A DNA stretch of 64,000 bases from a virus (lineage: Duplodnaviria; Caudoviricetes). The notes under the pieces are model-generated. The model was not told where the DNA came from. It ran no database searches and worked only from the letters and a program-made list of their open reading frames with translations. Below, one piece after another: positions 24,678 through 60,511 of the stretch (its first letter is position 1; each line of letters starts with the position of its first letter). Position numbers and translations under genes: made by a program. The DNA lies in the IMG/VR virus record IMGVR_UViG_3300046710_000261, positions 1 through 64,000 of that record. One strand, 5' to 3'.

Positions 24678-24874
24678 ATCGTAAATACCGTTTCATCAAT
24701 TTTATAATCTATCTGCTCTACACAAGTTGGATGCGATTTATTATCGTCATTGAATATTCCGTATACATAACATTCAGAATTGCATCCCATGGCCTTTTTA
24801 TGAGGAGTTTGATGGCCACATTTAAATTCTTTTATTAAGCGACAGTCCTTTGCTTTACTGCATATATAGTTCAT
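24674..24874 (-). CDS. Cys/His microprotein with tag (type A)
   Basis: YIC..CGHQTPH; ends YKIDETVFTI. Confidence 0.75.
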   Translation of the reverse strand: MNYICSKAKDCRLIKEFKCGHQTPHKKAMGCNSECYVYGIFNDDNKSHPTCVEQIDYKIDETVFTI

Positions 24875-25077
24875 ATTTTAAATACTCTTTCAGGTATCTC
24901 TATCTTGAAAGGTTTGTTATCAATACATCTTACAATTCTTCTGATGGTTCTACAATAAGCATCACAACTTCCAGAGATTAATTCATGTTCTTTATAGTGG
25001 CGGCAAGTCACGGGGCCAAAAGAAGTCTTGTATCTCCCACCACATTTTTTCCCCGCAGGGCAGATATATTTTATCAT
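24871..25077 (-). CDS. Cys/His microprotein with tag (type A)
   Basis: YIC..CRHYKEH; ends FKIEIPERVFKI. Confidence 0.75.
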   Translation of the reverse strand: MIKYICPAGKKCGGRYKTSFGPVTCRHYKEHELISGSCDAYCRTIRRIVRCIDNKPFKIEIPERVFKI

Positions 25078-25123
25078 CTTAATGCCTTCGTATTGTTGTC
25101 TTTTGTTCCTATGGAATAATTAT

Positions 25124-25333
25124 TCATATTTTAAACTCCTCCTCTGGTATTGCGAGATTTAATTCGGGTTCTTTTATGATAACACATCCAGTCCATGTTC
25201 CCATTTCATTACATGTCGCGCTAACAAAATTTCCAGTCGTGCCATAATGTATATGAGGGACCGCTCCATCACAATTTTGTTTTCTACATCTACCACTTTT
25301 GAATGCTTCGCATATATACCTTTTCTTTTTCAT
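25124..25333 (-). CDS. Cys/His microprotein with tag (type A)
   Basis: YIC..PHIH; ends LAIPEEEFKI. Confidence 0.75.
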   Translation of the reverse strand: MKKKRYICEAFKSGRCRKQNCDGAVPHIHYGTTGNFVSATCNEMGTWTGCVIIKEPELNLAIPEEEFKI

Positions 25334-25515
25334 ATTTCGAAAACCTCTTTAGGTATTTCAAATTTTTCTTTATGCTCAACACAGAAGGCATAGTGAGCAG
25401 GGATAGCATGATCACAATATCCTTCGGCGCATAAAATTTCCTTTTCATGCGGAACAGAATGAATGCATTTCTTTTTAAAGGAGCAACCAAAATTTCTACA
25501 CATGTATGCTTTCAT
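25330..25515 (-). CDS. Cys/His microprotein with tag (type A)
   Basis: YMC..CIHSVPH; ends FEIPKEVFEI. Confidence 0.75.
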   Translation of the reverse strand: MKAYMCRNFGCSFKKKCIHSVPHEKEILCAEGYCDHAIPAHYAFCVEHKEKFEIPKEVFEI

Positions 25516-25709
25516 ATTTGAAATTCTTCTTTCGGTATTTCGAGGTTGAATGGTACATAATCTTTACATGTAGTCTTCATCATAAATTTTCTGCAAGTGC
25601 AATGACAACCAGGAACAAAATCATGAGGAAGAAAATGAGGACATTTTCTTAAGTCTTCTACAAACATGCCATTGCAATATTTGGCTTGCGCACAAATCAT
25701 TTCTCTCAT
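25512..25709 (-). CDS. Cys/His microprotein with tag (type A)
   Basis: MIC..CPHFLPH; ends LEIPKEEFQI. Confidence 0.75.
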   Translation of the reverse strand: MREMICAQAKYCNGMFVEDLRKCPHFLPHDFVPGCHCTCRKFMMKTTCKDYVPFNLEIPKEEFQI

Positions 25710-25876
25710 ATTTCAAACTCCTCTTTTGGTATATTCAAATTAAGCATTATCTGGCATCTGATTATGGTTCCGTCACAGGTATGATCTGAACAGTATTTGT
25801 TATGCTCATGGAGTTTGGAATGAAAACAAGAACCATAATATCTACATTCTATTTTGAGGCATAGATATTTGTCCAT
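25706..25876 (-). CDS. 56-aa Cys/His microprotein with tag (type A; not in ORF track)
   Basis: MDKYLCLKIECRYYGSCFHSKLHEH...LNIPKEEFEI, translated by hand. Confidence 0.75.
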   Translation of the reverse strand: MDKYLCLKIECRYYGSCFHSKLHEHNKYCSDHTCDGTIIRCQIMLNLNIPKEEFEI

Positions 25877-26065
25877 TACATTTCTTCCTCCAATGCTTTC
25901 TCCATCGTTTTAAAGGCCAACCGCTTTCTCCATTATTATATCCACACTGGCATTCGGCTATATATCTATGGCAATCAAGACAGTATTCTTCATGGCCCGA
26001 ACAGTATGGGGTTTCACAGGGAAATGAATAATAATAATCTGGATTTATATGTTTATGTTTACATT

Positions 26066-26323
26066 TCATATCTTAAATTCTTCCTTCGGTATCTTGAAAT
26101 TGAATTCTACATATTCAATACATCTGACAATATCATCTCTTGATTTCGGACATTTTCTTTCTCCTATTACACACAAATGCATCATGAAGCCTGGGAGAAC
26201 ATCGTGACTATGAGGCAAAGAAAGTTTGCATATTGAATTTCCATCAAAAGTTCCAAAAGTTCTTTTTCCATCCGTTTTGCAGGTTTTGAGTTGATATGAA
26301 GAGCATATATACATTTTTTCCAT
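26066..26323 (-). CDS. Cys/His microprotein with tag (type A)
   Basis: YIC..PHSH; ends FKIPKEEFKI. Confidence 0.75.
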   Translation of the reverse strand: MEKMYICSSYQLKTCKTDGKRTFGTFDGNSICKLSLPHSHDVLPGFMMHLCVIGERKCPKSRDDIVRCIEYVEFNFKIPKEEFKI

Positions 26324-26607
26324 TATTCTATCCTGAATACATCTTCTGGAATTTTGTTTATATCAACTATTTCTATACAGGTCAACTTCTCTTCTAACTT
26401 AAAGCATTTCAATGTTACGGGCTTTTTTCCATAACAAAAAGTGCAATTATTCGCTAGTATATGAGGCGTACCATTGGAACACGGCGACCCGCGAAATAAA
26501 CCATCACACTTTTTTTCCAACACCGCCTGACATATTCTCTTTGGTGGCTCAACAATAGTGGCCCTCATTATTTCTTTTTTCGGTTTATCTTGGCCAAATT
26601 TTTGCAT
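26323..26607 (-). CDS. Cys/His microprotein with tag (type A)
   Basis: RIC..CDG..PH; ends KIPEDVFRIE. Confidence 0.7.
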   Translation of the reverse strand: MQKFGQDKPKKEIMRATIVEPPKRICQAVLEKKCDGLFRGSPCSNGTPHILANNCTFCYGKKPVTLKCFKLEEKLTCIEIVDINKIPEDVFRIE

Positions 26608-26615
26608 CTTATCTC

Positions 26616-26843
26616 CTATTCTATTTTAAATAATTCTTCTGGCAGTTTGATTTCAAGCGGGTCATATACCATATATATAACACCATTTATTTCATATGAT
26701 TTCCATTTCATAGAAATATCTCCCATCGGCGGAATTTCACATTCTTCTTTCGTTATTAGTTTTGGAAACGGAAAGTCTTTTCTCAAATTTTCAAAAACAT
26801 ATTCAAAAGAATGCTTATCCATCTTCAATATTCCTTTTGTCAT
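26616..26843 (-). CDS. tagged microprotein, non-Cys body
   Basis: Ends EIKLPEELFKIE. Confidence 0.7.
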   Translation of the reverse strand: MTKGILKMDKHSFEYVFENLRKDFPFPKLITKEECEIPPMGDISMKWKSYEINGVIYMVYDPLEIKLPEELFKIE

Positions 26844-27070
26844 AATGCAAACACATCCTTTGGTATATCCAATTTGAAATCAATATATTCCACACAATAT
26901 ACAAAATCACCATCTGTATTGCATTTAAGATGTTCCCTGCAAATAGGACAATAGGGCCAGAGTTCCATTCTATCGGTTGGTAGATGGGGTCTGCTATATG
27001 CGCATTCTTTCCCAAAAGATATTCCATTACATTTGTTATCTCTAAATTTGACGCAGATTTGAAATATCAT
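26840..27070 (-). CDS. Cys/His microprotein with tag (type A)
   Basis: QIC..CNG..RPH; ends LDIPKDVFAL. Confidence 0.7.
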   Translation of the reverse strand: MIFQICVKFRDNKCNGISFGKECAYSRPHLPTDRMELWPYCPICREHLKCNTDGDFVYCVEYIDFKLDIPKDVFAL

Positions 27071-28265
27071 CAGCCTTCTCCATTGTTGAACTTCTCCAAT
27101 TCTTATCCATTACTTCTTCTTCGAGACGCAGATCAAAATACTTTTTTGCTATATCAGGAAATCGTTTTTCTATATCGTCAAGATTTCGCCAGCGGTTTTT
27201 ATTGGTGTCTTTCATTGAAGGTCTTTCGCAAAATTGCCTGAAGGATTTTTTGGCAAAGTTCAAAACTGAATTTATCCATTCATCCATATGAGAATATAGT
27301 TTCCGATATGGTCCCGTCTTTGCATTCTTATATCTCATCAGGAAAGGAAGACATCCGTATTTCATTATGATATGTACTCTCTCAAAAGTATTCTCTATAT
27401 CCTTTTTCCAAAATGCTTCATCATACTTTCCTTCTTCATCAAATCCACAAAGGACAAATAGTTTTGTTTCATGGCGAGGACTGACATACTTTCTCCATAA
27501 TAGCAATTTCTTCTCTATGATTTCTCTTTCCCTTATATCATCAAATGCAAAAATGTAATGGCCCTCATACTTACAACTTGTTATGACCTTTGCTTTCTCG
27601 TCTGTCAGCATTCGAATATCCATTCCCTGTTTGAATTGGAATGATCTGCCCGTTGCAATCAATTCATCGAATACATCTTTCCAGTGAGCATAGCCAAGAA
27701 TGTTATCATCCCAAAGAGAAATTGCCCTCCGCGCAGGAACGAAAAATTCTTTTACATGGGTATGAAATTCAACCTTTCTATACTTTTGGTTTACACAGAA
27801 CGGACATTTACGGAAACATCCCCGCGTCATAAATCCTATTGAGTAGTCAGTATAATAATCCCAACTCCCTCTTCCGACTCTCTTTTCTCCCAGTTTTTTT
27901 CCTATAGGGTTTTTTTGGTTGCCCAGCCAATCATTATATAGATTATAGTCTGGCATATGATGTTCAATTTCATCAGGCAGATTTGGGGCCTTATCAAAGA
28001 AGAAACCCGTTCCGCCATATTCAACATTTGGCCTTTCTATTGGACTTGGTATAAGTACATTGCTTTGGGGGATAACTGTTTCGGTGAATACTTTTGATAT
28101 ATATACCTTATCGTATTTGTCAATTTGAGAATAATTCAAAAGCAGACTGACCCTATCTCCCTGTTCTTTATGGTGGCCTGATAGTTTCATACAAGCAAGG
28201 TTAGGAAAACTGTGACTTATTTTGTTATCCAATAAATCAGCATCTATAATACCTACGTTTTTCAT
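27042..28265 (-). CDS. radical SAM protein (copy 1)
   Basis: TRGCFRKCPFC (CxxxCxxC), WDDNI, QGMDIR; N-terminal FPNLACMKLSG domain. Confidence 0.85.
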   Translation of the reverse strand: MKNVGIIDADLLDNKISHSFPNLACMKLSGHHKEQGDRVSLLLNYSQIDKYDKVYISKVFTETVIPQSNVLIPSPIERPNVEYGGTGFFFDKAPNLPDEIEHHMPDYNLYNDWLGNQKNPIGKKLGEKRVGRGSWDYYTDYSIGFMTRGCFRKCPFCVNQKYRKVEFHTHVKEFFVPARRAISLWDDNILGYAHWKDVFDELIATGRSFQFKQGMDIRMLTDEKAKVITSCKYEGHYIFAFDDIREREIIEKKLLLWRKYVSPRHETKLFVLCGFDEEGKYDEAFWKKDIENTFERVHIIMKYGCLPFLMRYKNAKTGPYRKLYSHMDEWINSVLNFAKKSFRQFCERPSMKDTNKNRWRNLDDIEKRFPDIAKKYFDLRLEEEVMDKNWRSSTMEKADDISNLRQI

Positions 28266-28492
28266 ATTTTGAATACCTCATCTGGTATTTTGAATTTGTT
28301 AATTTCTGGAATAAGAATTATAAATTCATTTATACAAGAACAATGAAATCCCATTTTTGTTTTCTGTTCTCCATGGAGAAGTCTATTCAAAACCTCAAGC
28401 GACTGGTTTCGTCTATATATACAAATATCGTTATGACATATTTCTTTATGATCACAATAATGCATATTTTTATTTTTTATTATAAACATCAT
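28262..28492 (-). CDS. Cys/His microprotein with tag
   Basis: Ends FKIPDEVFKI. Confidence 0.7.
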   Translation of the reverse strand: MMFIIKNKNMHYCDHKEICHNDICIYRRNQSLEVLNRLLHGEQKTKMGFHCSCINEFIILIPEINKFKIPDEVFKI

Positions 28493-28719
28493 AATTCAAA
28501 TACATCCTTTGGTATATTAAATTCCTTATATTCTTGGCATTGTGGTTTTCTACAATTTTCGCGACACTCTGTTATTTCTCCTGGAAAAGCACAAAAATAG
28601 TTTGAGCCACAATCACCAGTATGTTGATGTGGAATGCTGTGTTTACATGGTGTGGTATTACAAATTCCAGGTATTGTCCCATTACATCCATATTTACATA
28701 TGTATAATTGTTCTTTCAT
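28489..28719 (-). CDS. Cys/His microprotein with tag (type A)
   Basis: YIC..CKHSIPHQH; ends FNIPKDVFEL. Confidence 0.75.
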   Translation of the reverse strand: MKEQLYICKYGCNGTIPGICNTTPCKHSIPHQHTGDCGSNYFCAFPGEITECRENCRKPQCQEYKEFNIPKDVFEL

Positions 28720-28949
28720 ATCTCAAACTCTTTCTTTGGTATTTTTAAGTCTATCTCAAATTTTTTAAATTCAACACAATAAACATCAGCATACATTATC
28801 TGACAATGTGTTTTCTGTCCAGAGTGTGGATGATCATGAGCAGAAGCCAATGGACATTTACGAGGATGATCGTAGTTGTATGATTTGCTATCAAATGCTT
28901 TTTCTCCATCACACTCATTATTTTGAAACATATTACATATGCATTTCAT
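28716..28949 (-). CDS. Cys/His microprotein with tag (type A)
   Basis: CIC..CDG..AHDH; ends LKIPKKEFEI. Confidence 0.75.
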   Translation of the reverse strand: MKCICNMFQNNECDGEKAFDSKSYNYDHPRKCPLASAHDHPHSGQKTHCQIMYADVYCVEFKKFEIDLKIPKKEFEI

Positions 28950-28950
28950 A

Positions 28951-29127
28951 TTATTCTACCTTGAATAATTCTTCTGGAATTTCCACCCTTCTCTTATATT
29001 CGGGGCATTTTATATGATGGTATCCATTTCGCAGAAGACCTTCTATACAATATTGTTTTGAGTTCGCGCAATACCATATTTTTTCGCTGACCGAATTTTT
29101 TCTTGCCAAATACCTACAATCTTCCAT
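28951..29127 (-). CDS. 58-aa Cys-rich microprotein with tag (type B; not in ORF track)
   Basis: MEDCRYLARKN..IWYC..YCIEG..CPEYKRRVEIPEELFKVE. Confidence 0.75.
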   Translation of the reverse strand: MEDCRYLARKNSVSEKIWYCANSKQYCIEGLLRNGYHHIKCPEYKRRVEIPEELFKVE

Positions 29128-29128
29128 C

Positions 29129-29764
29129 TTATTCCTCCTCGATTTTTGGTAAAGAAAATGTTTGTAGATTGCTCAAACGAAAACCCTTTTTGCTTACCGT
29201 GTATAATTTGAATTGGGTATCCATATGAGAAGAAATCAATTTATAGAATAGGGTGTATAGATTTTTTTCGAAGGGGATCTTTTTTTGGAAATCAGTTGAT
29301 TGCTTTTGCAAATATTCCCCTTCCCAAAAATCAAGACCAATTATATCTATTTCCATCGCCCTGTCCATGTATAATGCTCTCATTATACCATAGAAGGTAA
29401 TATTATTCATTGTGCTGTAAAGCATTTGAAGTTCGGGAGGAACAAAATGATAATGCAGACCTTCGATATTGTATGATTGTAATTTTTCTATTGATTTGGT
29501 TATTTCATTCTTTCTCACTTTCGGAACAGTGAAACAGACTTCCTTTATTCCGTATTTCAAATATACTTCTTTGGGTAGAATAGACGGCAACATTCTATTT
29601 GCTATATGACTAATTTTTAGGCTTTCGAATATATCAGGGTATAAATTCATTGCGTGGACTACATTAGCATTGACAATGTAAGCATGGCAATCTTTTATTT
29701 CATCTTTTATTGAGCATATATGTCGAATGCTCTCACCGCTTGCTATCACAATTGCTTTTTTCAT
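29129..29764 (-). CDS. GT42/Maf-like (sialyltransferase-fold) protein
   Basis: AIVIASGESI ... EIDIIGLDF motifs. Confidence 0.55.
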   Translation of the reverse strand: MKKAIVIASGESIRHICSIKDEIKDCHAYIVNANVVHAMNLYPDIFESLKISHIANRMLPSILPKEVYLKYGIKEVCFTVPKVRKNEITKSIEKLQSYNIEGLHYHFVPPELQMLYSTMNNITFYGIMRALYMDRAMEIDIIGLDFWEGEYLQKQSTDFQKKIPFEKNLYTLFYKLISSHMDTQFKLYTVSKKGFRLSNLQTFSLPKIEEE

Positions 29765-29988
29765 AGTTTGAATAAATCCTTTGATAATTCGATTTCAAAT
29801 TTTATATATGGTATACATTCTGAATTTACATTTATCCTGGGACACGGAAATCTTCGTTCATTACAGCGGTCCTTCACTGTTCCATGTTTGTGAGGTTCTG
29901 CTCCAGGACAATCAGGAAAATTATGTATTCCATTTCGTGTGCATAGAATATTGTCTTTTTTGTCGCATATGTATAATTTTTCTTTCAT
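29761..29988 (-). CDS. Cys/His microprotein with tag (type A)
   Basis: EPHKHG..CNERR; ends IELSKDLFKL. Confidence 0.75.
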   Translation of the reverse strand: MKEKLYICDKKDNILCTRNGIHNFPDCPGAEPHKHGTVKDRCNERRFPCPRINVNSECIPYIKFEIELSKDLFKL

Positions 29989-30227
29989 ATCTTGAATAAA
30001 TCCTTTGGTAGTTCAAAAGCCAGTTTTGTTTTATAATCTGCGCACATTCTGTTTTCACATGCACCACAACTTAAATCTCCCGACCAACAATAAGTTTCTT
30101 TCCGTTGAGACATGCTTGTTTGTCCTTTTTTTAGAGAACAATACCAGACATGGGAATGACCATCAGAAGTTTTCCCCCCATTGCTTGTCATATACATACA
30201 TTCAACTGTGTTATATTCTTTTTTCAT
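29985..30227 (-). CDS. Cys-rich microprotein with tag (type B)
   Basis: ECMY..WYC; ends FELPKDLFKI. Confidence 0.75.
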   Translation of the reverse strand: MKKEYNTVECMYMTSNGGKTSDGHSHVWYCSLKKGQTSMSQRKETYCWSGDLSCGACENRMCADYKTKLAFELPKDLFKI

Positions 30228-30463
30228 ATCTTGAATAAATCCCTATCCAATTCAATCTTGAATGAATAATACGGTTGGCAAACTGTAAATTTTTTTGCAT
30301 GAGAGCAATCTCTTTCTTCATTGCAATGATGAGGCTCAAGAGGACGACCGCATTTATGTCTATGAGGAACTCGACCACGACAGTCTATATTTTTACAGAT
30401 ATTTGCCCCATCACACAAAAACAATTGGTCGTTTTTCATATTTAGAGATTGATCGTTTTTCAT
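30224..30463 (-). CDS. Cys/His microprotein with tag (type A), duplicated N-terminus
   Basis: MKNDQ twice; CNEERDC; ends IELDRDLFKI. Confidence 0.75.
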   Translation of the reverse strand: MKNDQSLNMKNDQLFLCDGANICKNIDCRGRVPHRHKCGRPLEPHHCNEERDCSHAKKFTVCQPYYSFKIELDRDLFKI

Positions 30464-30669
30464 ATTTCAAATACCTCATCTGGTATTTTGAATTTATGTT
30501 CTTCTTGCTTTTCACCATCTTCAAAATTTTTGCATATATCCGCTTTCAATAGAGCATTTATGCAGGGATTATTATCTTTCATACATTTATGCCATGATAC
30601 CCCTCCCGCCCTGTCTATAAAAAGGTAATATCTGCATTCTCTATATCTTGTGTTTTTACATATAGTCAT
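30460..30669 (-). CDS. Cys-rich microprotein with tag
   Basis: Ends FKIPDEVFEI. Confidence 0.7.
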   Translation of the reverse strand: MTICKNTRYRECRYYLFIDRAGGVSWHKCMKDNNPCINALLKADICKNFEDGEKQEEHKFKIPDEVFEI

Positions 30670-53758: not shown

Positions 53759-54766
53759 TTAATTCATTTTCAACTTGACCATGGCATCAAACTTTGAGAA
53801 AGAGTTATCGGAAACAAACTCATAGATGTCTTCAATGCCACATTTTGTAACGAGATCGTTTATATCCTTTATCTCTTTGTATTTATGTGGTGGGATGAAA
53901 TATTTCGTCAAGTGTGAGAACTTTCCTGTATTCATGTATTCAAAGGTTGCCTTCCTACCAGGAGCATCATTATCAAGAGCGAGAATAACACCTTTATCTG
54001 TGCTGTCTAATAACTTTTTGATGAACTCGTCCGTTATTTCTACACCCAAACTTGATGTTCCTTGATTGGGTATTCCATCAGCATCCAAAAGGCCCTCTAC
54101 CACAATGATATATTTGTCTCTTTTGAATTTGTCTAAATTGTATATAATCCGACTTTTTTCTGTTGGTGGATTTTTATATTTTCTTTCTGGATTTGACTCT
54201 AGTGACCTTCCCTGAAAATATATCATATCATTGTTATTGAAAATAGGAATAATCACTCTGCCTTTATAGTCTCCATGGTAGGCAATATAAATTCTGAAAT
54301 TGGGAGAAATTTTTCTTTCATTGGCGAATTTTACCAATGCCTTTTTATGCGCCGTTTGAATAATCCCATCGGGTTCATCGGATAGGCCGATACAATCCTT
54401 CAATATGCTGTTATATAAATTGTAGGGAATGTCTTTGTAAAGGTCTGGTTTATATTTGGGTGCGGAGAGTGCTTTTATAATTCGGTCGGGGTCGTATCTG
54501 TCTAATTCTTTTTTGGCATCATTATATGATAGGCCATTCAATTCTGCATACAATTCGACAAATGATCCAGATCGCCCACAGTTCCAACAATGCCATGCTG
54601 GTAAACCATTTTTATAATCAAGATTGAAACGTCTCTTTGATTTTGATTTTTTGCTATCACCACAGAGGACACATCTGGCCTGAAAGTGGGTGCCGCCTTT
54701 AGTTATGAGCACCTTCTGGAAATGCTGAAAAACAAATTCTCTTACCTGATCTAAAGTAATTAACAT
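53759..54766 (-). CDS. DNA primase (T4 gp61-like)
   Basis: RCVLCGDS..HCWNCG zinc finger, IIP..FQGRSL, VEGLLDA, LDND, KDIND. Confidence 0.95.
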   Translation of the reverse strand: MLITLDQVREFVFQHFQKVLITKGGTHFQARCVLCGDSKKSKSKRRFNLDYKNGLPAWHCWNCGRSGSFVELYAELNGLSYNDAKKELDRYDPDRIIKALSAPKYKPDLYKDIPYNLYNSILKDCIGLSDEPDGIIQTAHKKALVKFANERKISPNFRIYIAYHGDYKGRVIIPIFNNNDMIYFQGRSLESNPERKYKNPPTEKSRIIYNLDKFKRDKYIIVVEGLLDADGIPNQGTSSLGVEITDEFIKKLLDSTDKGVILALDNDAPGRKATFEYMNTGKFSHLTKYFIPPHKYKEIKDINDLVTKCGIEDIYEFVSDNSFSKFDAMVKLKMN

Positions 54767-55900: not shown

Positions 55901-55929
55901 ATTATAGCATATTATGGATTTCATGTCAA
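55901..55929 (-). promoter_or_regulatory. sigma70-type promoter
   Basis: TTGACA-17-TATAAT with TG extension, overlapping the mom stop codon. Confidence 0.75.
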
Positions 55930-56579
55930 GAGATTTCTTTTGGGTATGGCAAAACTTTCCATTTCAAGAATTTTCGGTCTTCTTTATCTGTAAAATAGAC
56001 ATATCTGTTCTTTTTAGAACGATAGACAACCCTCATTTTCTCTTTATCTCGTAACTCTTTTGGAATGCTCCTATGGTCTAAATCTCCAAAAGTGTAATCT
56101 TTGAAAGGAATTGATGTTCCTGTAAATATCCAATTAGTGGCCTGATAAACTTTCCCCGAATGCCCATATTTAGTATCGGCATAACTTACGAGAATTGTTC
56201 CTTTAGGAATTGTCCTTAAAACCCATCCGATAAATCGGCTTTCAGAATTTTTGGGACATTCATCTGCCATCCATAAACGATTTAGTTCAAAAACTTTTTT
56301 TGCTCTTTCTTCTCCCGCCACACCTTTAATCAATGTATGAGATGCTGGTTTACCTATGGTAAGAACGCCCACTAATCTATCTTCTAAAAAGGCACCGAAT
56401 GCCCAACTTGTAGGTGCCTTTCGATGAAGGTAGTGTTCTCTTACCACCATTTCCATTGCTACCTTATAATCTATTTGCTTAAATTTTAGTTGGAGCGGAG
56501 AGGTCGGACATGAACCGCCATCTTTCTTCTGGAAGGAAGACTGTTCTACTTGAACTATCACCGCTGTATTATTTTCCAT
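55926..56579 (-). CDS. mom: Mom-family (GNAT) DNA adenine hypermodification enzyme
   Basis: HYLH, ELNRLW, PKNSESRFI, VSYADT..GH.G.VYQATNW.FTG, KNRY, LPYPK. Confidence 0.85.
   Translation of the reverse strand: MENNTAVIVQVEQSSFQKKDGGSCPTSPLQLKFKQIDYKVAMEMVVREHYLHRKAPTSWAFGAFLEDRLVGVLTIGKPASHTLIKGVAGEERAKKVFELNRLWMADECPKNSESRFIGWVLRTIPKGTILVSYADTKYGHSGKVYQATNWIFTGTSIPFKDYTFGDLDHRSIPKELRDKEKMRVVYRSKKNRYVYFTDKEDRKFLKWKVLPYPKEIS
56491..56564 (-). ncRNA. tRNA-Gly(TCC)-like element inside the mom 5' coding region
   Basis: GCGGTGA/TCTCCGC-T-CCA acceptor, GTTC/GAAC D-arm, TCTTC-CTTCCA-GAAGA anticodon arm, GGCGG-TTCATGT-CCG(A)CC T-arm. Confidence 0.75.
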
Positions 56580-56613
56580 ATATCACAATATTTATGTTTG
56601 GAGGTTAAAAAAG

Positions 56614-57750
56614 TTATTTCCATTCTTGATCTAATAATAAATCTTCTCTTCTCAAATCAAAATATTTCTTTGCTATCTCTGGATACTTTTCTTCCATTTT
56701 TTTAAGAGCATTTATTTCGGGATTTCGCTTCGCCTCTGCCTGAATAATACAATACTGTCTGAAACTTTTTTTCATGTAGTTTGGTACAAAATTACACCAT
56801 GTTTTTATTGTTTGATATACATCTCTATAAGGACCATCACACTCTTTATATCGCATAATATAAGGAAGACATCCATATTCCATGAGGATTTTTATTCTTT
56901 CAAATACATCTGTAATATCTTGTTCCCAAAACTCTTCATCGAATCGGTTATTTCTATCAAATCCACAGAAAACATATAACTTCGTTCTGCGTTTGGGATT
57001 TACATATTTTCTCCACATGCGGAGTTGTTTGATTATTGTTTCTTTGTCTTCAATATTATCAAAAGCAAAAATATAATCACCAAGGTATTTACAAGAAGAT
57101 ATAACTTTGGCCTTTTCCTCTGTCATCATTCTAATATCCATGCCTTGTTTGAATTGAAACGGATAACCTGTTTCAATGAGTTCATCGAAAACCTCGCGCC
57201 ATCTTGAATATCCCAAAATATTATCATCCCATAAAGATATTTTCTTTCTTGAAGGATCAAAAAATTCTTTTACATGGGCATGAAAAAACACTTTATCATA
57301 TTTCTTATTGACACAAAATTCACACTTGCGAAAACATCCTCTGGTTGTAAAGCCAATGGAATAGTCTTTATAATATTCAAGGCGTATTCTTTCTAATCCT
57401 TTTGTTTCCATTATTTTTACCCAATTATCATATAGATGATAGTCGGGTATATGATGTTCAATTTCATCAGGCAGATTTGGTGCGCTGTCAAAGAAAAAAC
57501 CTGTTCCACCATGTATTGTTTTTTTCAAAATACTTTCATCGAGAATGGTTCCAGTAAGAATTGTATCTGTGAATGCTTTTGATATATAAACCAAATCATA
57601 ATTATCAATGGTGTTATAATTTAGGAGCAGTTCTGTATTATCCCCCAATTCTTTATGATAACCAGATAATTTCATACAAGCAAGATTAGGAAAAGAATGG
57701 CCTTTTCTTCTTATAAGATCAGCGTCAATGATACCTATGCTTTTACTCAT
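56614..57750 (-). CDS. radical SAM protein (copy 2)
   Basis: TRGCFRKCEFC; clear paralog of 27042..28265. Confidence 0.85.
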   Translation of the reverse strand: MSKSIGIIDADLIRRKGHSFPNLACMKLSGYHKELGDNTELLLNYNTIDNYDLVYISKAFTDTILTGTILDESILKKTIHGGTGFFFDSAPNLPDEIEHHIPDYHLYDNWVKIMETKGLERIRLEYYKDYSIGFTTRGCFRKCEFCVNKKYDKVFFHAHVKEFFDPSRKKISLWDDNILGYSRWREVFDELIETGYPFQFKQGMDIRMMTEEKAKVISSCKYLGDYIFAFDNIEDKETIIKQLRMWRKYVNPKRRTKLYVFCGFDRNNRFDEEFWEQDITDVFERIKILMEYGCLPYIMRYKECDGPYRDVYQTIKTWCNFVPNYMKKSFRQYCIIQAEAKRNPEINALKKMEEKYPEIAKKYFDLRREDLLLDQEWK

Positions 57751-58676
57751 TTTAAACCATACTTTTTTGAAAGAACAGAATCATTTTTTATGAAACAGAA
57801 AACTTCATCACAAAAATATTCTATATTTTTGGGTATAACTATTTTCGATCTATTGTTTTTGATCCATTTATAATCAATATCAAGTATGCCAAATTTTTTA
57901 CAAAAATTTATTCCTGTAAGGGGTTCTCCAATACCAGTTATGCCCCCCTTACATGCATCCAAGGCTTCTTTATCTGTTTCTGCATCAAAACTGACAAAAT
58001 ATATTCTTGATTCGGTATATCCTTTTTCTTTGCAAATTTCAGAAGATTTTAATAGTTTTTGTCCAACTTCTTTGCCTTTTTCTGTATCAAATTCCGTTCC
58101 TTTCTTAATTTCATAAATATCGGAGGTCATTTTATTATTATCAAATTTTAATAAATCAAGCTCTATGCCCCGCGAAGTTTTATCCCCTTTTATTTTTTTG
58201 AGTATCTTGTAATTAAAATATATTTCTTCATTTTCTTTTACTAATGGTTTTCCCTCTTTCGCGGAATTTTCAAGCCACCCCATTTTCAGGAGTATGCATT
58301 TTACATCAAATACTAAAGCGTCACCTGTCTGTATTTTTGTAAGATGTGTTCTTGACATAAGATTGGCAAGAGATAAAGGAAGAATGTCTATATAAGCACT
58401 TTCTTTTTTGGGTTCATTTTCTGAAATTAATGTCGATATACTTTTTGGTTCTTTTGGCGGTTTTCTTTTTTCCCCTTTCATGGATTTTTTCATTACATCA
58501 CCCCTTGTTTCAGGATCAGGTTCCTGAAAATTTATCTGTTTATTGATTTCTCTTTTTATCTGTTTGCTGATATTTTTTCGGCATTCTTTGCAAAATGTTT
58601 CTTTTCCCTCATCAGGCACTACAAAAAAATATGCCAAACTTTCAGTAAGTGGTTTCTTACAATTATAACAAATCAT
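57747..58676 (-). CDS. PD-(D/E)XK restriction-like nuclease with N-terminal zinc finger
   Basis: CxxC..CxxC; ELDLL...IYEIKKG..FDTEK. Confidence 0.55.
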   Translation of the reverse strand: MICYNCKKPLTESLAYFFVVPDEGKETFCKECRKNISKQIKREINKQINFQEPDPETRGDVMKKSMKGEKRKPPKEPKSISTLISENEPKKESAYIDILPLSLANLMSRTHLTKIQTGDALVFDVKCILLKMGWLENSAKEGKPLVKENEEIYFNYKILKKIKGDKTSRGIELDLLKFDNNKMTSDIYEIKKGTEFDTEKGKEVGQKLLKSSEICKEKGYTESRIYFVSFDAETDKEALDACKGGITGIGEPLTGINFCKKFGILDIDYKWIKNNRSKIVIPKNIEYFCDEVFCFIKNDSVLSKKYGLK

Positions 58677-58718
58677 GAAAAGCCTTTCTTTATAGCATTT
58701 CTTCCATTATCTCATACT

Positions 58719-58747
58719 ATTATATCAAAAAAAGGAAACACTGTCAA
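58719..58747 (-). promoter_or_regulatory. sigma70-type promoter for the nuclease-rSAM-mom cassette
   Basis: TTGACA-17-TATAAT with TG extension. Confidence 0.8.
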
Positions 58748-58768: not shown

Positions 58769-60511
58769 TTACAGGGTTGCGGGGTTTTTAATATCACACA
58801 GTCCCTTACACTCGATATCTTCCGCTGACATGAAATCTTCAGATTTTTCTTTTTTCAAAACTTCAATAGTTTCTTCTTTGCTCAATTTATTATATATTTG
58901 ACCTTCCCGTGATCCTTCAGTATAAACAGTTACGCCCTTGAGGTCACGCAAAAATTCTTGGAGTAAAATATCCAATTGTTGGGGTGTAGTTTTGGCGGGT
59001 AAGTTAATCGTTTTTGAAACGGCTCCGTCCACGTATCGTTGAACTATCGCTTGAACTTCCAAATGTTCTTTCGGAGTTAATTCTGACGCATCCACAAACC
59101 AATCTGGAATGGGTTGTTTGTTGATAAGCAATTCTTTGTATTTTGGGTGAATATAAATTCTTTCTCCAACTCTGTCTTTTCTTCTGTAAGATTTATATGG
59201 CAATGGCTCAATTCCTGATGATACTTCGGGCAATAGGCTTATCGTCCCTGTGGGTGCGATTGATAATCCAGTAACACAACGCACACCTTTATTTTTTATG
59301 TCGATGCGTAACTGGGCAGGAAGTTTTCTAACAAAAGATGCGTTGCCATAAGCAACAGGATCGAATTTTGGGAATGACCCCTTTTCTACTGACAACTCAA
59401 TAAGAGTTTCGTATACGACATCCCGGATAAAACGCATTAATTTTTCTATTTCCAATATGCTGTCTTTTGAGCCATATCTGATTTCTTTAGCAAATAGATA
59501 TTCTGCTAAACCCATTATTCCAACTCCAATCCTGCGAGAATTGTGTGCTTTAATATCTATTTCCTTCAAAGAATATCTGTTTACATCTATTACATCATCC
59601 AAAAATCTAACGGCAAGTTTTATTGTTCCTTCCAGTTTTTTCCAGTTCGTATTTATATTGCCTGTAATGAAATTGGGCAATACCAGTGAGCCTAAATCGC
59701 AGGAGCCATAATTTTCCAGAACGGCCTCACCGCACGGATTTGTGGTCACGACGGGGTCATAATAATACGAGTTGTTCTTAAACAGATTTGTGCTATTCAA
59801 TAATCCTGGTTCTGCGACAGTAACCATATTTTTGATAATCATGTTCCATAGGTCTTTTGCCTTTACATGACCATATTCTTTCTGTTTGAATTTGAATGTC
59901 CATTCACCATTGCTCTCTACTGTCTTCATAAATTGTTCATTGACTAATACTGAAATGTTAAAGTGGGATATTTTCTTGTCTACAAGTTTGGCATTGATGA
60001 AGTTTACTATTTCGGGATGGGATACATCACAACATGCTAATCCAGCGGCTCGTCTCTGGCCTCCGCTTTCTATTGGTTTGGCAACCGCATCAGACATTTC
60101 GATAAAAGAAACCATTCCGCTTGAACTTCCGCCTTTGCCCGATATTGGGTCTCCACACGGGCGCAAGGGTGAGAAATTACATCCAACTCCACCACCTTCA
60201 GACCATAAAACAAGACAGTCTGAAAGAAATCGTCCTATTTCCTCAATGCTGTCTCCAATAGGCAACGCATAACAATTTAGCAGGCTGCCCTTTTGCTTTC
60301 CCGCGTTTCGCAATATTCTTCCAGCAGGAATAAAATCCATGTTATATATCATCTCATGGAATTTTTCGGCATATAACTTCTTATCTTTTTCTACGCTTGC
60401 TATTGCGTCTGCCACCCTGACTGTTGCTGTTTCCCAATTCTCACCATTATTAAAATATCGCGCCATTGCCACTTCTTCCGCATTTGCTGATAATTCTATC
60501 TTCTTCGACAT
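58769..60511 (-). CDS. nrdJ: class II (B12-dependent) ribonucleotide reductase
   Basis: FIPAGRIL, LLNCY, GGGVG, RRAA, TNPCGE, APTGTIS, VSKTIN, C-terminal Cys pair; no small-subunit gene adjacent. Confidence 0.85.
   Translation of the reverse strand: MSKKIELSANAEEVAMARYFNNGENWETATVRVADAIASVEKDKKLYAEKFHEMIYNMDFIPAGRILRNAGKQKGSLLNCYALPIGDSIEEIGRFLSDCLVLWSEGGGVGCNFSPLRPCGDPISGKGGSSSGMVSFIEMSDAVAKPIESGGQRRAAGLACCDVSHPEIVNFINAKLVDKKISHFNISVLVNEQFMKTVESNGEWTFKFKQKEYGHVKAKDLWNMIIKNMVTVAEPGLLNSTNLFKNNSYYYDPVVTTNPCGEAVLENYGSCDLGSLVLPNFITGNINTNWKKLEGTIKLAVRFLDDVIDVNRYSLKEIDIKAHNSRRIGVGIMGLAEYLFAKEIRYGSKDSILEIEKLMRFIRDVVYETLIELSVEKGSFPKFDPVAYGNASFVRKLPAQLRIDIKNKGVRCVTGLSIAPTGTISLLPEVSSGIEPLPYKSYRRKDRVGERIYIHPKYKELLINKQPIPDWFVDASELTPKEHLEVQAIVQRYVDGAVSKTINLPAKTTPQQLDILLQEFLRDLKGVTVYTEGSREGQIYNKLSKEETIEVLKKEKSEDFMSAEDIECKGLCDIKNPATL

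Follow-up and report, generated by a model that had tools for sequence, protein, structure and literature searches.

The Mom protein of phage Mu modifies DNA by N6-carbamoylmethylation of adenine, a reaction whose in vitro reconstitution has never been achieved and for which a trans-encoded radical S-adenosylmethionine (SAM) partner has been proposed (Karambelkar et al., 2020; PMC7261163). In that work no partner was identified by testing Escherichia coli strains without radical SAM genes, and the residues needed in Mu Mom were assigned to acetyl-CoA (H48, S114), iron (Y49, D139, Y149) and substrate (R101) (Karambelkar et al., 2020; PMC7261163). Other described phage systems are the 5mYOX/ParB clusters, and ParB-like proteins are established partners in such DNA hypermodification clusters (PMC13229309). 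Here we describe a mom gene that immediately follows a radical SAM gene and a gene for a restriction-enzyme homologue (open reading frame A, ORF-A) in the virus record IMGVR_UViG_3300046710_000261 of IMG/VR (Duplodnaviria; Caudoviricetes). The stretch analysed, called the window below, is the first 64 kb of this linear record of 155,948 bp, for which CheckV gives a completeness of ~70%. We tentatively read the three genes as an early-transcribed island of DNA modification and attack on host DNA, in which Mom, perhaps with the radical SAM protein, would modify adenines and the orphan nuclease would cut DNA that is unmodified. Of wider reach and on firmer ground is another new finding, the association of this radical SAM family with DNA methylase genes. 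The features concerned, all of them in the window, are as follows.

58719..58747, minus strand: promoter P1, of the early sigma-70/sigma-A type, TTGACA-17-TGATATAAT, a 12/12 match with TG extension
57747..58676, minus strand: ORF-A, 309 amino acids (aa), a predicted zinc ribbon and PD-(D/E)XK domain (PADLOC, HMMER, alignment, Atlas)
56614..57750, minus strand: radical SAM protein, 378 aa (phrog_9298, cluster motif, AlphaFold2 fold)
56589..56596, minus strand: CATAAATA octamer, 9 nucleotides (nt) ahead of the mom start codon, a sequence of chance-level frequency
55926..56579, minus strand: mom, 217 aa, predicted GNAT-fold adenine-N6 DNA modification enzyme (PF25680, phrog_1384)
55901..55929, minus strand: promoter P2, early, TTGACA-17-TGCTATAAT, a 12/12-class match
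27042..28265, minus strand: second copy of the radical SAM protein, 407 aa, 61% identical, which keeps all family-invariant residues

The sequence-only reading had named the three gene products as a PD-(D/E)XK-like nuclease, a radical SAM protein and Mom, and these identities hold. In the case of Mom, the protein matches PF25680 over profile positions 2-202 of 202 (1.4e-41, 142.9 bits, cut-off 27.1), with which the genome search agrees, as well as phrog_1384 (6e-52), and a pairwise alignment shows it to be 32% identical to Mom of phage Mu. Once the numbering of the RefSeq Mu protein is shifted by its 10-residue offset, H49, Y50, R101, S114, D135 and Y145 of the window protein correspond to H48, Y49, R101, S114, D139 and Y149 of Mu Mom, and R101, S114, D135 and Y145 are invariant across 17 homologues. 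With its predicted acetyl-CoA, iron-binding and substrate residues all kept, the phage protein is, by sequence, a clear and new member of a known family, whose nearest homologues in isolate phages are found in Bacillus, Listeria and Staphylococcus phages. It differs from its Mu counterpart in context, in that mom of Mu is under a late circuit controlled by Dam, C and Com, whereas the mom gene described here is under an early consensus promoter and belongs to a large phage of lytic type, where it directly follows the radical SAM gene and the restriction-enzyme homologue. The genome search found one Mom gene in the record, and no match to PF01555, PF02086, PF00145, PF02384, PF07669, PF05063 or ParB_N was found in its 156 kb (the search for PF05063, or MT-A70, was silent in control genomes too and is thus uninformative). 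Because these searches of the record for methylase families and ParB_N came up empty, Mom is its only recognisable DNA-base modifier.

The radical SAM protein matches phrog_9298 (5e-51) and carries a CX3CX2C cluster motif (C139-x3-C143-x2-C146, at 57313-57336) whose three cysteines are invariant in 57 sequences. The same alignment shows additional conserved cysteines at positions 262, 294 and 319, which might hold a second cluster. Its homologues number 5959, the best 120 of which are 52-69% identical to it; the few with names are hypothetical proteins, and by the taxa of the Atlas clusters the family is mostly viral. No Pfam family was matched at E<=0.1, including Radical_SAM (PF04055), B12-binding (PF02310) and UPF0004, and literature searches found no paper on this radical SAM family or on linkage of Mom and radical SAM genes.

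The neighbourhoods of this family were surveyed at 22 and then at 79 IMG/VR loci (some contigs being common to both), including that of the closest relative, 67% identical, and were counted over 42 lineages dereplicated at 85% identity, whose independence is not tree-based. A DNA methylase, mostly of adenine type, is the immediate neighbour in 18 of the 42 lineages, often overlapping the start or stop of the radical SAM gene, and five more lineages have one within 3 kb (23/42). Among the controls, by comparison, a methylase neighbour was seen for 32 of 349 other genes of the same loci (Fisher p=1.6e-7) and for 8 of 104 Mom genes (p=2.3e-6). The methylase calls of the survey are motif-based; all ten of the neighbours from the second survey that were checked with Pfam were verified as methylases, more from the first survey being confirmed separately, and the ten comprise ParB_N-PF01555 fusions (upstream or downstream), Eco57I, D12/Dam and EcoRI-methylase-like enzymes. 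The closest relative has an Eco57I-type methylase beside its radical SAM gene. C5 methylases also occur beside the family, and in the isolate Oscillospiraceae phage NatCom_21982 the genes for an adenine-type methylase, the radical SAM protein and a C5 methylase overlap in series. Since both the methylase families and their orientations vary, these data argue for an association that arose repeatedly and against one inherited pair.

Pairs of a ParB_N-PF01555 fusion and the radical SAM gene were seen again and again in loci of IMG/VR and of isolate phages (L003, L229, L246, L266, L303, L306 and others), the stop codon of one gene often overlapping the start of the other. The family elsewhere thus adjoins ParB_N-methylase fusions or ParB-like genes and in this is like the 5mYOX/ParB clusters (PMC13229309), from which the present locus differs in that the record has no ParB_N domain and in that a radical SAM protein stands where those clusters have a dioxygenase. 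In the window, it is Mom that occupies the slot beside the radical SAM protein. The significant link of the family to adenine-type methylases elsewhere lends indirect weight to the idea that the radical SAM protein acts in adenine DNA modification.

An AlphaFold2 model built from the 57-sequence alignment (predicted local distance difference test, pLDDT, 90.6) shows an N-terminal Rossmann-like domain, a radical SAM barrel and a helical C-terminus. Its best structure matches are MgmA (Z 17.6), AprD4 (16.7), MiaB (15.9) and RimO (15.6), followed by TsrM, OxsB, CysS and TokK (Z 10.7 to 12.3), and the barrel scores Z 7-17 against many radical SAM structures. The Rossmann-like domain aligns with those of MgmA, TsrM, OxsB, CysS and TokK; AprD4, which is not known to use cobalamin, scores equally high, and there is no match to PF02310. 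In its modelled fold, the phage protein shares the two-domain layout of class B radical SAM methylases and of MiaB and RimO, in which a Rossmann-like N-terminal domain is joined to the barrel, and differs from them in that it has no Pfam match, no cysteine triad and no TRAM domain and in that its putative nucleic-acid substrate would be DNA. Membership of the methylthiotransferases (MiaB/RimO/MtaB) was considered and rejected, as the N-terminal domain contains one conserved cysteine (C25) in place of the triad of these enzymes and no match to the TRAM domain was found. MiaB and MtaB act on the N6-modified adenosines N6-isopentenyladenosine (i6A) and N6-threonylcarbamoyladenosine (t6A) in tRNA, and this would be a parallel to the adenine-N6 partner of the phage radical SAM protein.

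Elp3, which consists of a radical SAM domain and a GNAT, makes 5-carboxymethyluridine (cm5U) and 5-carbamoylmethyluridine (ncm5U) on tRNA. In the window, a radical SAM protein and an acetyl-CoA-binding GNAT are encoded in the same order as the Elp3 domains, and the carbamoylmethyl product of Mom is of similar chemistry, which could be taken to mean that the two phage proteins form a split Elp3-like enzyme, where a 5'-deoxyadenosyl radical made by the radical SAM protein would activate acetyl-CoA in the GNAT pocket of Mom. The radical SAM protein would then be the trans-encoded partner that has been proposed for Mu Mom (Karambelkar et al., 2020; PMC7261163). Some of the Mom loci lend themselves to the same idea. 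Among their ORFs of >=180 aa, CX3CX2C occurs in 3 of 513, and two of these three are the co-oriented gene directly upstream of Mom. In both cases, L032 (855-3039) and L054 (3370-6515), the gene encodes a SplB-like radical SAM protein ('DNA repair photolyase'; phrog_9252, phrog_13321) that is unrelated to the family in the window. Such an arrangement in 2 of 104 other Mom loci compares with ~0.2 expected by chance (P ~0.02) and is a weak, if intriguing, signal for an Elp3-like mechanism. The Mom of L054 is fused to a phrog_6364 domain.

On the other side, close relatives of the SplB-like genes of L032 and L054 occur without Mom (L224 and L225 keep the flanking genes and have no Mom), and a radical SAM gene is lacking near 102 of the 104 Mom loci. 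The members of the window family that are >50% identical to the window protein pair with SAM-dependent methylases or stand alone and are never found with Mom; the family is thus one that normally pairs with methylases and not with GNATs. Its fold is nearest to B12-type methylases and MiaB, while Elp3 (5l7j) scores just Z 7.0, the level of a generic radical SAM core, so that no radical SAM domain of Elp3 type is found here and the two activities lie in separate genes. In addition, the window Mom retains an iron-binding triad of its own. With a radical SAM domain that is not Elp3-like and a family that pairs with methylases, the split-enzyme mechanism is largely rejected, and we regard it as very improbable, the least probable of the readings weighed here.

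The second copy of the radical SAM gene (27042..28265) lies in a different setting. On the minus strand, positions 24871-30669 hold an array of at least 16 tandem small ORFs (56-94 aa), nearly all with 4-9 cysteines and several histidines. Every one of them ends in an IPKEEFKI-like motif common to the array, which has the radical SAM paralogue in its middle, and four further ORFs with the motif are found elsewhere in the genome. From their sequences, they could be a family of zinc-finger early proteins or a set of substrates of the paralogue. The second possibility would fit a reading in which peptides or proteins are the substrates of the radical SAM family, which might, for example, mature cysteine-rich small proteins, and its adjacency to Mom is incidental. 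The paralogue overlaps cysteine-rich ORFs of the array at both of its ends, and the best structural match, MgmA, methylates a protein residue, several of the weaker matches being peptide maturases. At a dozen other radical SAM loci inspected, however, no comparable family of cysteine-rich small proteins was found beside the gene, and the partner that does have statistical support across lineages is a DNA methylase. Action on peptides or proteins is therefore an explanation to which we assign a low probability.

The first gene, ORF-A, was read from its homology as a PD-(D/E)XK nuclease. Its residues ~85-295 (window 57792-58424) form the predicted nuclease domain, residues 103-289 being matched by PADLOC REase_II PDLC03487 (E=1.6e-6), and a HMMER scan of 1.84 billion representatives gave 12 homologues (P0122-P0133) of ~230 aa, with a best E of 4e-8. 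Invariant in ORF-A and these 12 are D174...E189-x-K191-x-G193...D197-T198-x-K200, the signature of PD-(D/E)XK enzymes. In the Atlas feature search, the nearest clusters were 'Restriction endonuclease' (0.97) and a PF09520 cluster (0.92), and a profile search gave 299 relatives, including a few with the name 'restriction endonuclease' and one with a weak match to PF09520 (TdeIII/HinfI). The identity of ORF-A to its relatives is 25-30%, and every other member found is cellular. No Pfam, PHROG or NCBIfam family was matched, a word-based search of 5.8 billion proteins and a tblastn search of isolate phages gave no homologue, and nothing useful came from sequence searches of the PDB with ORF-A, the radical SAM protein and their profiles.

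The cellular relatives were examined at 76 loci distributed patchily across bacteria and archaea. At 60 of these a PF01555 N6/N4 methylase lies <=300 bp away, and 6 more are at contig ends. DPPY enzymes carrying a RAMA domain are frequent among these methylases, an indication that the target is adenine. Because 60 of the 76 loci carry the methylase within 300 bp, the relatives are, judged by gene neighbourhood, a genuine family of type II restriction-modification endonucleases, and ORF-A belongs to it as a divergent orphan carried by a phage, with the predicted catalytic D...ExK kept. It is like the family (PDLC03487, distant to PF09520) in that residues 85-295 align and D174, E189, K191 and the GxxFDTxK block are kept, and differs from it in having no cognate methylase, either adjacent or in the 156-kb record. 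A further difference is that residues 1 to ~84 add an N-terminal zinc ribbon (CxxC...CxxC: C3, C6, C29, C32) and a basic, lysine-rich linker that are missing from all cellular relatives. Translation from an internal Met62 or Met66 could yield a shorter product without the zinc ribbon.

The record has a G+C content of ~35% and is 94% coding, and nearly all genes of the window part are on the minus strand. The three genes are co-oriented there in the order ORF-A, radical SAM, mom, with a consensus promoter on either side, and are flanked by the gene for the large chain of ribonucleotide reductase (58769..60511) and by a small unit leading to a primase. P1 (58747-58719) lies directly behind the ribonucleotide reductase stop and ~40 nt upstream of the ORF-A start, so that the consensus promoter claimed ahead of the nuclease gene is present. 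The similar promoter that was said to start at the mom stop codon is likewise found, as P2 (55929-55901), an identical class of site in which the mom stop codon TGA sits within the -35 hexamer. The ATGA coupling of the nuclease and radical SAM genes is confirmed by the ORF coordinates, and mom starts 34 nt past the radical SAM stop. Because no strong promoter or terminator was detected inside the three-gene cassette, one early transcription unit is the simplest reading of its layout. From its position, P2 is the promoter of the next unit, which encodes a 124-aa unknown protein, a 110-aa helix-turn-helix protein and a DnaG-type primase (53759..54766). A nucleotide search of the cassette region against isolate phages gave no match.

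Both promoters belong to a set that extends over the genome. Perfect matches of the TTGACA-17-TATAAT class occur six times in the window (40354, 45002, 45857, 47774, 55901 and 58719), where chance would give 0.13 and each site is on the gene strand, and 15 times in the whole record, all co-oriented with the genes and sharing the form TTTTCTTGACA...TGnTATAAT. Most of the 15 have TTTTC upstream and a GAAAGTGAGG-type ribosome site downstream, and P1 and P2 each have ATAATGGA downstream. By class, P1 and P2 are real promoters; because such sites number 15 across the record, all of them co-oriented with genes, they represent the generic early type of the phage and are not specific to the cassette. 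Extended -10 elements and GAGG-type ribosome sites suggest a Firmicutes-like host. The octamer CATAAATA, which had been described as late-promoter-like, is indeed present just before mom (56596-56589), but a late-promoter role for it was rejected, its frequency being no better than chance, with 14 copies in the record against ~21 expected (a hand estimate from base composition) and 4 of the 14 intergenic. TATAAATA, on the other hand, is enriched between genes, 11 of its 29 copies being intergenic in a record that is 94% coding, and is a likely late promoter.

Whether the three genes recur together elsewhere bears directly on the idea, proposed in the sequence-only reading, of a nuclease, radical SAM and Mom module, and here the neighbourhood survey gave the very result that this reading had set as grounds for its refutation, namely no co-occurrence outside this phage. 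No Mom or ORF-A homologue was found within 4-6 kb at ~100 radical SAM loci, no phrog_9298-type radical SAM gene or ORF-A was found at any of 106 other Mom loci, and thus none of these loci repeats the trio or any pair of its genes. Four other virus records with the radical SAM family, including a complete provirus of 174 kb, likewise have no Mom anywhere. In 62 dereplicated Mom loci, the immediate neighbours are DnaB helicases, ParB_N proteins, methylases and terminases, and no restriction enzyme family is recurrent beside Mom. The trio is therefore not a conserved, mobile module but was assembled in this phage lineage, and the combination, known only from this phage, is best called a variant of phage DNA-modification and anti-restriction islands.

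Besides this lack of recurrence, several features of the phage itself weigh against the island reading favoured above. The radical SAM paralogue has no Mom or methylase nearby. In ORF-A, a valine (V122) stands where the family has a near-invariant helix glutamate, and its single-sequence structure model (pLDDT 37) is unusable. Some 30% of the estimated genome lies outside the record and could hold a methylase. Over the whole record, palindromes are strongly avoided (ATCGAT, 0 observed and 37 expected; AGGCCT, 0 and 14; GAATTC, 11 and 102), and GANTC is depleted three-fold (194 observed and 568 expected, z -13.9), so that self-protection could depend on avoidance of sites in place of modification. 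CTNAG (72 observed and 289 expected) and GATC (333 and 554) are also scarce. Such avoidance suggests that restriction weighs heavily on the phage and that modification protects it incompletely. The depletion of GANTC, taken with the faint similarity to PF09520 (TdeIII/HinfI), is a lead on the specificity of ORF-A, although avoidance in this genome is general.

A rival explanation is that three independent accessory genes have come to lie side by side by chance in the early region, where Mom alone would protect against host restriction as in Mu, the radical SAM protein would do a separate job, and ORF-A would be a nuclease that degrades host DNA, is selfish or is decaying, with its sites avoided by the phage. 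The absence of any recurring pair, the missing helix glutamate, the strong avoidance of palindromes and GANTC and the generic nature of the bracketing promoters all fit with it, and even where Mom follows another radical SAM gene it resembles a recent insertion (L032 compared with L224 and L225). Chance does less well in explaining why a single promoter and an ATGA overlap make the genes one expression unit, why a homologue with an intact D...ExK stands beside the only DNA modifier of a record without a recognisable methylase, and why the slot next to the radical SAM protein, normally that of an adenine methylase, is here filled by another adenine-N6 modifier. Chance juxtaposition is a serious possibility, although we consider it somewhat doubtful.

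The reading that we tentatively prefer, that of an early-transcribed island for DNA modification and attack on host DNA, would work as follows. Early in infection, Mom would turn adenines of the phage DNA into an adduct of N6-carbamoylmethyl type. The radical SAM protein would likewise modify DNA, as the partner of an enzyme that acts on adenine N6 (a methylase in other phages, Mom here). Its most plausible action would be a radical reaction on the same adenine or a neighbouring one, such as C-methylation or another change to the ring or side chain. ORF-A would cleave unmarked DNA of the host or of competitors, with Mom in the place of the lost cognate methylase. A bolder form of this proposal, which we consider unlikely, is that phrog_9298-type radical SAM proteins are a new class of post-replicative DNA-modifying enzymes acting on N6-substituted adenine, either N6-methyladenine (m6A) or the Mom adduct, to give an undescribed hypermodified adenine. 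ORF-A would then be a modification-sensitive weapon, and Mom and the radical SAM protein would replace the methylase in a restriction-hypermodification system.

The locus offers a natural pair of a radical SAM protein and Mom in which the chemistry of Mom can be tested. The wider significance lies with the radical SAM family, whose ~6000 mostly viral and mostly unnamed proteins, with no Pfam match and with significant, recurrent ties to adenine DNA methylases, are a strong candidate for a new type of DNA modification in phages that infect anaerobes and so have no access to dioxygenase routes, which depend on oxygen. If the island reading is true, an orphan restriction-enzyme homologue beside Mom would represent a new combination in phages, in which attack on unmodified DNA is joined to self-protection.

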